Shown: positions 987 through 36,653 of the stretch, piece by piece | Position numbering within the stretch: position 1 is the stretch's first letter | Layout: every line of letters begins with the position of its first letter | Source of the DNA: an uncultured Gammaproteobacteria bacterium | GTDB taxonomy: Bacteria > Patescibacteriota > Microgenomatia > UBA10105 > UBA927 | Reading direction: 5' to 3' | Length of the DNA stretch: 64,000 bases | NCBI GenBank assembly: GCA_964596355.1 | Contig: CAZQTD010000004.1 | Coordinates: 1,183 to 65,182, forward strand | Translations under genes and position numbers: made by a program | The notes under the pieces: model-generated | Seen by the model: only the letters and a program-made list of their open reading frames with translations | What the model was told of the DNA's origin: nothing | The model's database searches: none

Positions 987-1060
987 GGACCCGTAGCTCA
1001 GCTGGTCAGAGCGTTTCATTGACATTGAAAAGGTCAGAGGTTCAACTCCTCTCGGGTCCA
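987..1060 (+). tRNA. tRNA-Val (anticodon GAC)
   Basis: 74-nt cloverleaf read directly. Acceptor GGACCCG/CGGGTCC, D-arm GCTC-AGCTGGTCA-GAGC, anticodon stem TTTCA/TGAAA with loop TTGACAT (anticodon GAC), T-arm AGAGG-TTCAACT-CCTCT, discriminator A. No encoded CCA. Confidence 0.85.
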
Positions 1061-29430: not shown

Positions 29431-30168
29431 CTATGACGCAAACCCAATGATTCCCATTATTTTGCCAAAATGTTCCCGCGCGTCTTTGCGAAACGAAAAA
29501 AATGTCTCTGCCTGACACGATGTGCATTTAACCGGCGCATCAATGTGATCGTCAGGCACGCCAAGCGTTTTAAGCTGTACCAGCACAGCATATCCTAAAT
29601 CCAGATGCCATTTCTTGCCGATCTTCGCGGCAATCTTCGGATCGCGGCCAAAGACCTTCTGAAACGCCGCCGCGCGCTTTGCCGGCACATCATAACAGCA
29701 CATGCCGATATGCGGGCCAATCGACACATAGACATCACGCATTCGCCCGCCGTTGTCTTCCACTGAAGCCGCCACAGTCCTCAATATATTGTTAAGCGTT
29801 CCTTTCCATCCCGCGTGGACTGAAGCAATAATGTTGACCTTAGAATTCACAAGAAGGAGAGGAACGCAATCCGCGGCAAATACGGCGAGCACAGGGTTTG
29901 CTCCGTGGGTTTTTTTATACATAAGCCCATCGCAGTTTTTCACTTCACCGCGCTCGTTGCCGACAAGCTCAACAACTGTCGTTCCGTGAACTTGCTCTGG
30001 CCACACAAGCGAACCAACGTCAGCGCCTATCCGGCGAACGAATCCCTCTCTGGCACTTGTCAACCGCATATCTCCATCAGTTCGATCAGAATATCCATGG
30101 ACAATTCCGCCAATTACTGAAAGGAGTTTTGATTGATGCATATTATTGCTGCCTCCTGATCGCTCCAT
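29431..30168 (-). CDS. pgeF: YfiH/PgeF-family peptidoglycan editing factor (laccase-domain purine nucleoside enzyme)
   Basis: 245 aa. FAADCVPLLL...ASVHAGWKGT matches the DUF152/YfiH signature. Confidence 0.8.
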   Translation of the reverse strand: MERSGGSNNMHQSKLLSVIGGIVHGYSDRTDGDMRLTSAREGFVRRIGADVGSLVWPEQVHGTTVVELVGNERGEVKNCDGLMYKKTHGANPVLAVFAADCVPLLLVNSKVNIIASVHAGWKGTLNNILRTVAASVEDNGGRMRDVYVSIGPHIGMCCYDVPAKRAAAFQKVFGRDPKIAAKIGKKWHLDLGYAVLVQLKTLGVPDDHIDAPVKCTSCQAETFFSFRKDAREHFGKIMGIIGFAS

Positions 30169-33311: not shown

Positions 33312-34222
33312 AGCTTTTCTGCAATGCGCAGTTTCGCGCTTCTGGATCTTCTATTTCTTGCCACTTCTTCAGCTGATGCCACCACAGGTTTTTTTGTTAT
33401 GCTTCGCATCGCGCTTGCTCGTATAAACTGCTTCACAATCCTATCTTCAAGTGAATGAAAGCTGATGACAACGAGCCGTCCGCCTGATTGAAGCAGCGTT
33501 TCTGCTCCGGCTAAACCGCGTTTGAGCGAGCGAAGCTCGTCATTGACAACAATTCGAAACGCTTGGTAAACCCTTGAAAGAGTTTTTTCTCCATTTCCTC
33601 CCGCTGCCGCGCGCGCCACGACTAAACGGATGTCTTTCCCCGTTATAAGCGGGCTTACCGTACGGGCGCGGACAACAGCATGAGCAATTGCCCGAGCACG
33701 CTGTTCTTCACCAAACGTTGCAAGTATTTCATACAACTCCTCTTCGGATAGACGGTCGATCACGCTATGCGCCGATTCGCCGAGTGATTTATCGAACCGC
33801 AGATCAAACGGCGCGTCGTCAAACCGATAGCTGAATCCCGCACTCGGGGTATTCAGCTGGTGGCTGGATACCCCGAGATCAAACAGTATCCCGTCAACCG
33901 ACTCAAATCCCTCTTGTTTTGCGATCTGGTCAATATCGCAAAAATTCCCGTGAACAAGCTTCCATGTTCCTCGTGTTTCCAACTTCTTAGCTCCAACCTC
34001 CAACCGACGTCTCGTAAACGCAATTGCCTCTTCATCCAAGTCAATCCCCAATACATCACCGCCGCGTTTGACGATTTCCCACAAGTGCCCTCCTCCTCCA
34101 ACGGTCGCATCGATGTACCGCTTCTTCGGATTTACGCGTAAACCCTCAAGCACTTCTCGCACTAACACCGGCTCATGAAAGACGTTCATGGCATTTGGGG
34201 TCCGGCTTCGTACGTTTCCCAC
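33308..34222 (-). CDS. rsmH: 16S rRNA (cytosine1402-N4)-methyltransferase
   Basis: 304 aa. FHEPVLVREVLEGL...YIDATVGGGGH is the canonical RsmH/MraW N-terminus. Confidence 0.9.
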   Translation of the reverse strand: MGNVRSRTPNAMNVFHEPVLVREVLEGLRVNPKKRYIDATVGGGGHLWEIVKRGGDVLGIDLDEEAIAFTRRRLEVGAKKLETRGTWKLVHGNFCDIDQIAKQEGFESVDGILFDLGVSSHQLNTPSAGFSYRFDDAPFDLRFDKSLGESAHSVIDRLSEEELYEILATFGEEQRARAIAHAVVRARTVSPLITGKDIRLVVARAAAGGNGEKTLSRVYQAFRIVVNDELRSLKRGLAGAETLLQSGGRLVVISFHSLEDRIVKQFIRASAMRSITKKPVVASAEEVARNRRSRSAKLRIAEKL

Positions 34223-34587
34223 GTCTTTTTATCCCAGATCTCAAAGTGATCACCGGCTCCCACGACCACGACGTCTTTTGTAACATGCGCATATTCCTTA
34301 AGCAGGGCAGGCAAAAGAATACGACCAAGCTTATCCACCTCGACAGAAACCGCGCCGGCAAACATGTATCGCCTGATTGCTCGTGCCTTCTCCTCTGTAA
34401 TCGGCGCCTCCAGTTGCTTAGCTGCTTCCTTTTTCCAACTCTCCCGGTCAAATCCAAAGATACACGCGTCAAAGCCTCGCGAAAGAATGACGCTTTTCTC
34501 TCCCAGTTCTTGTCGAATCTTTCTCGGTATGGTCAACCGGCCTCGATCATCCAGCGCATGGTCGTATTCCCCAAGGAATAGCTTCAT
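34186..34587 (-). CDS. mraZ: transcriptional regulator MraZ
   Basis: 133 aa. MKLFLGEYDHALDDRGRLTIP and a second DxxxR repeat. AGGA RBS 8 nt upstream. Confidence 0.9.
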   Translation of the reverse strand: MKLFLGEYDHALDDRGRLTIPRKIRQELGEKSVILSRGFDACIFGFDRESWKKEAAKQLEAPITEEKARAIRRYMFAGAVSVEVDKLGRILLPALLKEYAHVTKDVVVVGAGDHFEIWDKKTWETYEAGPQMP

Positions 34588-34607
34588 GTCCCAATCCTAC
34601 CATTTCT

Positions 34608-34632
34608 TCCCACTAATTTCCATAGTTACCCA
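34608..34632 (-). promoter_or_regulatory. candidate MraZ operator (three direct pentamer repeats at 10-bp spacing)
   Basis: Minus-strand sequence TGGGT-aacta-TGGAA-attag-TGGGA. Three TGG[GA]N pentamers with 5-nt spacers, 21-45 nt upstream of the mraZ ATG. Confidence 0.5.
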
Positions 34633-34740
34633 TTTTTCACAACATGTCAAGAGGCATTTCACGCAAAGAGTGCATCAGAATCATCTATAGTGCAAATAAG
34701 AAAAAACGTACACAACAGGTAGCGTTTGAGGTCAAAAAAA

Positions 34741-34756
34741 TGAACATGGATGTTCA
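34741..34756. promoter_or_regulatory. perfect 16-bp palindrome TGAACATggATGTTCA, candidate operator
   Basis: 7-2-7 perfect inverted repeat about 155 nt upstream of mraZ. GAAC/GTTC half-sites resemble but do not match the Gram-positive LexA box spacing. Confidence 0.3.
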
Positions 34757-34884
34757 ATCACTCTCTTTGTAGTCACAAGTGGAATATGATGTATGGCAAT
34801 ACGTTACGATATGCAAAGAGCATCGTGTGTGTGATAACGGATGTTTTTGGTCAGGGGGAATTTCTTTCGGTACGAGAATTCTCG

Positions 34885-35352
34885 TTACAGTTCGTACTCT
34901 TTGGAGAATTGACTTTTGCGACCGTCGGCGGCGGTGAACTCAAGAACAACGGAAACCTTTGAAACCCCTACGTCTGGCTTGCAGACGTTTTTTGAGCACG
35001 TTCCCAGATATATTTCCCGTTCAAACGCGTCTTGATCGGCCACATCAATCGGCTTGCTCCCTGAATTAACGCCTTTGATAAGACCTTCGCTTTCGTACGT
35101 TAGCTCATAGGCAACCGACGCCATCTTACGCGCAAGTCCTTTAACGCGCAGAGTAACGGTGTTGTCTTTTGATTTGCTCTTCGTTACCTCAACGATGACG
35201 GATTCATCAACCTGCGGAAGAAGTTCACTCTGCTCCTCTTCTTCGCTTGCGATAGACCTTGATTTTGCGCTAAATCCCACCTTATAGACAACTACTCCGG
35301 TGATAAGGAGTAAAACCGCAAGCACTCCAACAATAATACCTGTTTTTTTCAT
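34885..35352 (-). CDS. hypothetical membrane-anchored or secreted protein
   Basis: 155 aa. N-terminal signal-anchor (IIVGVLAVLLLITGVVVY), acidic linker EEEEQSE, and a C-terminal domain with two Cys. No recognisable family. Confidence 0.45.
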   Translation of the reverse strand: MKKTGIIVGVLAVLLLITGVVVYKVGFSAKSRSIASEEEEQSELLPQVDESVIVEVTKSKSKDNTVTLRVKGLARKMASVAYELTYESEGLIKGVNSGSKPIDVADQDAFEREIYLGTCSKNVCKPDVGVSKVSVVLEFTAADGRKSQFSKEYEL

Positions 35353-36653
35353 AATTTCTCTTGGATATAATGAGTAAGTTTGTCTATTGTTACTCTGTCT
35401 TGTTTCGTCGTATCCCTGTCGCGAACCGTCACGGTGTCATCTTTCACTGTATCATAATCAATGGTGACACACCAAGGGGTGCCAATCTCGTCCTGCGCCA
35501 AATAGCGCTTGCCAATGTTGCCGCGATCATCCCACGCAGTGACAACATGAGGCTTGAGGAGATAGTAGACAGCCTTTGCTTTCCTTATCAACTCCTCTTT
35601 ATTGGAAACAAGCGGGAACACCGCAACTTTCACCGGAGAAAGCCGCGGATGAAGAGCGAGAACTACGCGCCTGCCCTCTTCGCGATACGCATCAGTAAGG
35701 AAAAAGAGCGCCGCCCTGTCAACGCCGCCGGACGTTTCAATGACCCACGGGATATATACTTCGCCGGTTGTATCATCGCGATACGTCTGTTTGTGATTTT
35801 TGAGATCAAAATCGCCTCGATGATGAATTCCCTCAAATTCACTCCAGCCTCCGCCAGAGGCGGATCCGGATTTGGCGGAAAACGGCGCGTCATATTCGAT
35901 ATCAGTAGCATGTCTTGCATAATGCGCCCTTTCATTTGACGCATGATCTCTGAATCGTAATTTCTTTTTATCCATCCCCAAGGAAAGGTACCACTTCATC
36001 CGTTCTTCTTTCCAATAGGAAAACCATTTCTCGCCTTCTTTTTCTTCCGGACGGATAAAAAACTCAAGCTCCATTTGCTCAAACTCGCGGCTGCGAAACG
36101 TGAAGTTGCCTGGGGTTATTTCGTTTCGAAACGCTTTGCCGATTTGCGCAATACCGAAGGGGATTTTCACACGAGTTGAATCAACCACGTTGCGAAAGTT
36201 TACAAACACTCCCTGCGTAATCTCACCTCGAAGATACGCTTTTTCCTTGGGCTCGGTGACGCCTAAGGAAACTTCTGTTAACAGATTAAAGGTCTTCGGC
36301 TCCGTCCATTCGACAGCGACTCCCGGATGAACCTGTATTTGATGACCGGAAATTTCATCAGACCTATCTGCCCGAAAACGCTGATGACACACCTTGCACT
36401 CTACGAGCGGATCGGCAAACGCCTTGGTGTGCCCTGATGCTTCCCACACCGCGGGATTCATAATAATTGACGCATCGATACCAACGACGTCATCGCGCAT
36501 GTTTACCATGCTGCGCCACCACTCGTGTTTTATGTTGCGCTTAAGTTCAGCTCCCAGCGGCCCGTAATCCCAAAAACCGGCAATCCCACCATAGATTTCG
36601 CTTGAAGGGTAGATAAATCCGCGGCGTTTGGCAAGAGCGACAATTTTATCCAT
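35349..36653 (-). CDS. glyQS: glycine--tRNA ligase, single-chain dimeric (archaeal/eukaryote-like) type
   Basis: 434 aa. RRGFIYPSSEIYGGIAGFWDYGPLG is the class II GlyRS alpha2 N-terminus. C-terminal anticodon-binding domain. Confidence 0.9.
   Translation of the reverse strand: MDKIVALAKRRGFIYPSSEIYGGIAGFWDYGPLGAELKRNIKHEWWRSMVNMRDDVVGIDASIIMNPAVWEASGHTKAFADPLVECKVCHQRFRADRSDEISGHQIQVHPGVAVEWTEPKTFNLLTEVSLGVTEPKEKAYLRGEITQGVFVNFRNVVDSTRVKIPFGIAQIGKAFRNEITPGNFTFRSREFEQMELEFFIRPEEKEGEKWFSYWKEERMKWYLSLGMDKKKLRFRDHASNERAHYARHATDIEYDAPFSAKSGSASGGGWSEFEGIHHRGDFDLKNHKQTYRDDTTGEVYIPWVIETSGGVDRAALFFLTDAYREEGRRVVLALHPRLSPVKVAVFPLVSNKEELIRKAKAVYYLLKPHVVTAWDDRGNIGKRYLAQDEIGTPWCVTIDYDTVKDDTVTVRDRDTTKQDRVTIDKLTHYIQEKL

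Follow-up and report, generated by a model that had tools for sequence, protein, structure and literature searches.

In E. coli, the promoter Pmra (mraZ1p) reportedly carries an operator for MraZ. The K-12 genome (NC_000913.3) reads TTGACA, 17 nt and GTAAAC, then GTGGG-aaatt-GTGGG-gcaaa-GTGGG-aataa-GGGGT and the ATG, and the mraZ site is autorepressive according to two papers (PMC7761207, PMC8475190). MraZ boxes of the form GTG(G/T), three or four in number and separated by 6-nt spacers, are described as bound cooperatively and with a repressive outcome, and transcription starts inside box 1 (PMC12957436); in the cryo-EM complex of M. genitalium, each box is bound by one MraZ subunit via Lys13, Arg15 and Arg86 (PMC12957436). 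The operator of B. cenocepacia consists of four 7-nt repeats with 3-nt spacers, which lie downstream of the -10 element and overlap the start site (PMC7761207), and three GTGG[A/T]G repeats are needed for repression in B. subtilis (bioRxiv 10.1101/2022.02.09.479790).

We analysed the region upstream of mraZ in a window of 64 kb (the window is the whole stretch of DNA that was analysed). The MraZ protein encoded there is homologous to the MraZ proteins of M. pneumoniae and M. genitalium, whose structures are solved. Downstream of the gene lie rsmH/mraW, a small ftsL-like ORF, a PBP/ftsI gene and a Mur-ligase-like ORF; to judge from these ORFs, this is the head of a standard dcw cluster. The stop codon of mraZ shares the tetranucleotide ATGA with the likely start codon of rsmH (34186-34189, minus strand; ccATGAacgtc, translated as MNVFHEP...), which suggests translational coupling, and the ORF list also holds a longer rsmH, which begins with GTG and reaches 37 nt into mraZ. 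The only match above the Rfam gathering threshold in the window is a tRNA gene (987-1060, plus strand). The nearest genomes are those of Candidatus Gottesmanbacteria and other Patescibacteria MAGs, and the host appears to be a Gottesmanbacteria-like CPR bacterium. The MraZ proteins and promoters of L001-L009, L018 and L021-L023 group with Gottesmanbacteria MAGs, and many of these records are titled "uncultured Gammaproteobacteria bacterium"; another record, L077, is titled Escherichia coli, yet its mraZ upstream region differs and is Bacillota/Mollicutes-like. Both the Gammaproteobacteria-titled relatives and L077 are probably mislabelled or mis-binned. MraZ operators as a type are already known (E. 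coli, B. subtilis, Mycoplasma); in this phylum they are undescribed in the literature that we searched, in which we found no paper on MraZ boxes in CPR and nothing relevant that links TGGGN to MraZ.

An earlier, sequence-only reading of this DNA had proposed an MraZ operator of three pentamers upstream of mraZ. The minus-strand sequence TGGGTAACTATGGAAATTAGTGGGA (34632-34608) indeed contains TGGGT, TGGAA and TGGGA in this order and at exact 10-nt steps, from -45 to -21 relative to the mraZ ATG (34587-34585), and TTGACA lies upstream of them at 34650-34645 (minus strand) as claimed. The whole array region reads gCGTGAAAtgcctcTTGACAtgttGTGAAAaATGGGTAACTATGGAAattaGTGGGAagaaATGGTAggattgggacATG on the minus strand. 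For the window and 23 Gottesmanbacteria-like relatives (MraZ 63-82% identical), the 140 nt that precede mraZ were aligned, and the features below are given with their conservation in this alignment of 24 sequences.

34186 to 34587, minus strand: mraZ, 133 aa, Pfam MraZ (PF02381, E=5.4e-37)
34645 to 34650, minus strand: predicted -35 element, TTGACA; TTGAC invariant, sixth base A in 23/24; at -63 (-64 in one sequence)
34628 to 34633, minus strand: box 1, ATGGGT; in the promoter spacer, directly 5' of the predicted -10; TGG invariant in 24/24
34622 to 34627, minus strand: predicted -10 element, AACTAT, 17 nt after the -35; clade pattern nAnTAT, with A2, T4, A5 and T6 invariant
34618 to 34623, minus strand: box 2, ATGGAA; the T doubles as the final base of the predicted -10; TATGGA invariant in 24/24
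34608 to 34613, minus strand: box 3, GTGGGA; around the predicted transcription start; TGG invariant, 5' base G or A
34598 to 34603, minus strand: box 4, ATGGTA; within the predicted leader and in 10-nt phase with the others; TGGTA invariant in 24/24
34589 to 34593, minus strand: an extra TGGGA, 9 nt past box 4, in the variable Shine-Dalgarno region; not conserved

The earlier description therefore needs amending in its details. Firstly, the three boxes are present but a fourth in-phase box, (A)TGGTA at 34603-34598, had been overlooked, and the array spans -46 to -11 relative to the mraZ ATG with steps of 10, 10 and 10 nt. Secondly, the TGG of the supposed GTGGG-like or TGGGN core stands, but GTGGG does not: the core that is kept is [A/G]TGG (ATGG, ATGG, GTGG and ATGG). 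Thirdly, the boxes had been placed between the -35 and the ribosome-binding site; they are downstream of the -35, but box 1 is part of the promoter spacer and the predicted -10 shares a base with box 2. The fifth TGGGA (34593-34589) is probably outside the operator: it falls in the variable Shine-Dalgarno region, where the relatives have GGATTGGGAC, ATATCGATTC, GAGTTAGGGA and other sequences, and is not conserved.

The array resembles E. coli Pmra in its TGG-core direct repeats, its exact 10-nt period and its position directly upstream of mraZ, and both promoters have a perfect TTGACA as -35 and a first box about 44-45 nt from the ATG. The likeness to E. coli that the sequence-only reading had pointed out is thus visible in the K-12 genome, with three GTGGG, the same period and a near-equal distance to the ATG. 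The E. coli boxes are three GTGGG and a degenerate GGGGT, all downstream of the -10, whereas the window has four well-conserved boxes, mostly ATGG, and its promoter lies ~17 nt nearer the gene, with boxes 1 and 2 overlapping the spacer and the -10. Since the distance from ATG to boxes is kept while the promoter is ~17 nt nearer, the window operator would cover the -10 and not only the early transcribed region. The E. coli GGGGT (171-175 in locus L215; NC_000913.3 89620-89624) is a degenerate fourth in-phase box at the position of box 4 of the window. With the M. genitalium operator the window shares four boxes, a 10-nt period, A-rich 5' flanks and an overlap with the start region, which is predicted here; Mycoplasma boxes read AAAGTG(T/G), while the boxes of the window invariably have G as the third core base and mostly have A ahead of TGG. 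GTGG-type repeats that recur every 10 nt in the mra promoter region are also common to the window, B. subtilis and B. cenocepacia. In B. subtilis, whose flanking consensus is a different one (GTGG[A/T]G), the triple repeat is unique in the genome, as the array is within the 64 kb. In these two species binding and repression were shown experimentally, whereas for the window they are deduced from the sequence.

A consensus promoter scan of 34100-35400 called no sigma-70-like site; it missed AACTAT because this hexamer matches TATAAT at only 3/6 positions, and the assignment of the promoter, together with that of the start site, therefore rests on conservation and on the 17-nt spacing. By E. coli standards the predicted -10 is weak, which counts against the explanation given below. 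The predicted start falls near 34613-34618 and would leave a leader of about 28 nt. Box 1 then forms the end of the predicted spacer, and boxes 3 and 4 occupy the first 20 nt or so of the predicted leader.

We consider it highly probable that the array, four [A/G]TGG boxes at 34633-34598 (minus strand), is the autoregulatory MraZ operator of the dcw (mra) operon promoter. MraZ, produced from the gene that starts 10 nt past box 4, would bind as an oligomer lined up along a single face of the helix; the cryo-EM complex of M. genitalium suggests that each box would take up one subunit. The residues D11/K13/R15 of M. genitalium MraZ align to D13/R15/R17 of the window protein, and D82/R86 to D85/R89; the two DxxxR motifs are preserved as DDRGR (13-17) and DKLGR (85-89). 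R15, R17 and R89, positioned by D13 and D85, would thus be the contacts made by the beta-sheet cradle. The boxes begin in the promoter spacer, cover the predicted -10 AACTAT and the likely start and end in the ~28-nt leader, so that bound MraZ, covering about -17 to +17, would exclude RNA polymerase or stop open-complex formation; the outcome would be negative autoregulation of mraZ-rsmH-ftsL-ftsI-mur. Because the array covers both the predicted -10 and the start, a block to RNA polymerase, hence autorepression, is the preferred outcome. That MraZ binds the array but activates the operon is unlikely. Activation is on record for MraZ overexpression in M. gallisepticum, a report cited in PMC12957436; however, an array over the predicted -10 and start occupies the position of a repressor, and sites that overlap the start repress in E. 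coli, B. cenocepacia, B. subtilis and M. genitalium (PMC12957436, PMC7761207, bioRxiv 10.1101/2022.02.09.479790). From the position of the site we infer repression rather than activation.

The conservation of the array was assessed in the alignment of the 24 sequences. The 53-nt block from TTGACA to box 4 is ungapped in all of them, and the four TGG triplets and their 10-nt steps are invariant (24/24, no indels), while the bases between the boxes vary, those after box 1 reading for instance TAACTA, GAGAGT or GGAATT. Box 1 begins at -45 in the 23 relatives except L022, in which a 1-nt insertion places it at -46. Pairwise identity reaches 85% in the block, compared with 77% at codon positions 1 and 2 of mraZ and 47% at position 3, implying that this non-coding block is under stronger constraint than the protein. 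There is no alignable sequence upstream of about -80, and the relatives also differ from one another in the Shine-Dalgarno region, which lies between box 4 and the ATG. The sequence-only reading would have fallen had the repeats or their spacing drifted in orthologous upstream regions; in the 23 relatives, TGG and the 10-nt steps are invariant, and the reading survived. Part of the conservation of the block must be owed to the promoter itself, as the TAT of the -10 overlaps box 2. It is distinctly unlikely, though, that the block is merely a core promoter and translation leader in which the TGG periodicity is a by-product. The block does hold the predicted -35 and -10, box 2 overlaps the latter, and the rpmA promoter of this window likewise has a TGG-like element, TTGG, just ahead of its -10. 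Against this, boxes 3 and 4 are invariant even though they lie downstream of the -10, where promoter constraint is slight, and the adjoining Shine-Dalgarno segment is variable.

Within the window the array stands alone. On both strands of the 64 kb, TGG-N7-TGG-N7-TGG matches here only (2 overlapping matches, 0.46 expected); three TGGR at period 10 occur once (0.06 expected), as do four TGG at period 10 (0.01 expected). We built a weight matrix of one 10-nt unit from the relatives alone and applied it as four in-phase units. It scored 45.3 bits at 34596-34635 and -6.2 at the next independent site in the 64 kb; the motif scan suggested with the earlier reading thus singles out the array. We found no further operator-like sites in the window: with 2 mismatches allowed there are 6 matches, 3 of them the array itself, where 4.2 are expected. 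A tandem repeat arisen by slippage was ruled out, as the likeness is confined to the cores and Tandem Repeats Finder reports no repeat at the array, because only the cores are alike and not the whole 10-nt units.

More broadly, we searched the regions up to 156 nt upstream of mraZ at 80 loci from many phyla, with control windows taken from the same 80 loci. Period-10 chains of at least three TGG were present at 39/80 mraZ loci but in only 1/2821 control windows, and chains of at least two TGG at 66/80 loci against 118/2821 control windows. The earlier statement that the arrangement is conserved across bacteria agrees with the first of these counts. Period-10 arrays in phyla with another placement of the promoter speak further against a by-product of promoter sequence.

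Is the array tied to MraZ itself? Across the window clade (L001-L023), the equivalent of Lys13 is Arg, within DDRGR or DERGR (residues 15-17 of the window protein are encoded by 34537-34545, minus strand), and boxes 1 and 2 always begin with A (ATGG) and not with the canonical G. The A-first form of three of the four boxes is a clade-wide departure from the canonical G and counts against the operator explanation. The 5' base of the boxes is distributed as 77 G and 2 A for K-type proteins and as 70 A, 24 G and 1 T for R-type proteins. A Lys-to-Arg change as the explanation of A for G was dropped, since CPR lineages that keep Lys mix ATGG and GTGG; the link between the Lys13 position and the 5' base is confounded by phylogeny and is therefore not claimed.

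CPR lineages in which Gln replaces the residue equivalent to Arg15 of M. genitalium MraZ (...GQ[VI]ALP) carry NTAG arrays in the same 10-nt phase. The Gln-type loci are L031, L033, L035, L036, L039, L043, L046 and L201-L210, and the Arg-type loci L211-L214 and other CPR loci. A homologue search with one Gln-type MraZ found 551 proteins; the best 120 of the 551 include 70 Gln-type and 39 Arg-type proteins, the Arg-type sisters among them being ~50% identical. Twelve loci were inspected: eight further Gln-type lineages, all with TAG arrays, and four Arg-type loci with TGG/TGT arrays. Examples are CTAG GTAG ATAG ATAG (L209), ATAG TTAG TTAG ATAG (L210) and ATGG GTGG GTGG ATGT (L212). The in-phase cores were counted as follows.

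Gln-type, 12 loci: TAG 31, TGG 5, TGT 1
other CPR Arg-type, 20 loci: TAG 1, TGG 48, TGT 22
window clade, 42 loci: TAG 3, TGG 171, TGT 0

Fisher's test of Gln-type against other Arg-type loci gives p=6e-20, a statistic that ignores phylogeny, and the Gln-type group may stem from a single evolutionary event. Arg-to-Gln together with G-to-A is a textbook pairing. In M. genitalium, as we read PMC12957436, Arg15 contacts the G25:C25' pair, and the base that changes in the Gln-type arrays is the middle one of the core. The Arg/Gln and TGG/TAG pattern points to co-evolution of the contact residue with the middle base of the box. As the box core tracks a contact residue of MraZ, the array is tied to MraZ specifically, which a promoter-only origin of the periodicity leaves out of account. 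The reading of the array as an MraZ operator is therefore supported by the mraZ gene directly 3', by the invariant boxes and by the covariation of boxes and contact residues in relatives. We add tentatively, at slightly less than an even chance, that MraZ proteins and operators of CPR have co-diverged in specificity, the promoter of the window representing one state of a readable MraZ recognition code.

The promoter of the window contains a further conserved element, present in two copies.

34635 to 34640, minus strand: GTGAAA, in the spacer between -35 and -10, 7 nt ahead of box 1 and outside the phase of the boxes; in 22/23 relatives
34657 to 34663, minus strand: CGTGAAA, 6 nt upstream of the -35; in 19/23 relatives

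The distance from the upstream copy to the -35 varies, GTGAAA beginning 10-15 nt before TTGACA. The spacer copy is also found in several other CPR lineages and is missing from the non-CPR loci examined. GTGAAA reaches a density of 5.85 per kb upstream of mraZ, compared with 0.68 per kb elsewhere. L012 and L015 have extra upstream copies, at -89 to -73 from the ATG and with spacings of 13-14 nt, and L050 has two inverted copies (TTTTCACG twice, at -87 and -75); such extra and inverted copies would be more in keeping with a site bound by a protein than with a fixed element of the promoter. The window contains 57 TTGACA, 2 of which are flanked on both sides by GTGAAA: that of the mraZ promoter and that of a second composite, CGTGAAAaccgttgTTGACAtgtGTGAAAcccttggaTATACT (2301-2246, minus strand). 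Both have the form CGTGAAA-N6/7-TTGACA-N3/4-GTGAAA. The second is promoter-like (TTGACA, 17 nt, TATACT), has no TGG array and falls within the 3' part of an ORF, with rpmA (L27) following ~100-150 nt downstream. GTGAAAAA was rejected as a general promoter feature, as it is not enriched in the window (3 matches, 4.7 expected) and one copy, at 29936-29943, lies inside a coding ORF; CGTGAAA occurs 8 times in the window where 15 are expected.

A metagenome scan with the pattern CGTGAAA-N5-9-TTGACA-N2-5-GTGAAA returned at least 120 loci (L081-L200), which were chosen by the pattern itself. Among the composite matches listed, ~40 are upstream of CPR mraZ and ~23 upstream of rpmA, most of these with TATACT at 17 nt, some lying between genes and some within the upstream gene; also among those listed are 21 copies of one gut sequence and scattered singletons, the singletons fitting a rough estimate of ~70 random matches. 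GTGAAA elements were rejected as additional MraZ boxes: the spacer copy is 7 nt from box 1 and out of phase, the upstream copy is at a variable distance, and the rpmA promoter has no array. Being out of phase and present at array-less rpmA promoters, GTGAAA would therefore be either a separate promoter module or the site of another factor, and the composite may mark a second regulator site or a promoter class. It is very unlikely that a regulator other than MraZ, for example a GTGAAA factor, is the main controller and the TGG array secondary. Such a role would suit the conservation of CGTGAAA-N-TTGACA-N-GTGAAA and its presence at the array-less rpmA promoter, but GTGAAA stands apart from the boxes and out of their phase, it is missing from CPR promoters that keep the boxes (L211-L214), and it leaves the covariation of boxes and contact residues unexplained. 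A GTGAAA factor would more probably add to the control by MraZ than replace it. Taken with the MraZ operator, these elements, which rpmA promoters across CPR also carry, suggest that the promoter of the window is bipartite, with a second factor or a promoter class that would link the expression of L27 and of cell division.

Hardly credible is a leader that acts as an RNA (a structured 5' UTR or a small RNA), like the extended dcw leader RNA that exists in R. sphaeroides according to PMC5089854: boxes 3 and 4 would be transcribed, but 34400-35000 matches no Rfam family at E<=1, shuffled sequences are predicted to fold more stably (z=+1.06), and the predicted leader is only ~28 nt long and nearly without C.

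The MraZ operator proposed here annotates the control region of the division and cell-wall operon in an uncultured CPR bacterium with a reduced genome. MraZ autoregulation, which is known from a few cultured models, would extend to CPR with the same geometry. To our knowledge, almost nothing is known about promoters or regulators in CPR, and the composite that mraZ promoters have in common with those of rpmA offers a rare lead on how transcription is controlled in these bacteria. CPR would moreover offer natural specificity variants of MraZ (Arg/Gln) with matching operators, which make the recognition of DNA in the solved MraZ complexes testable by swaps.
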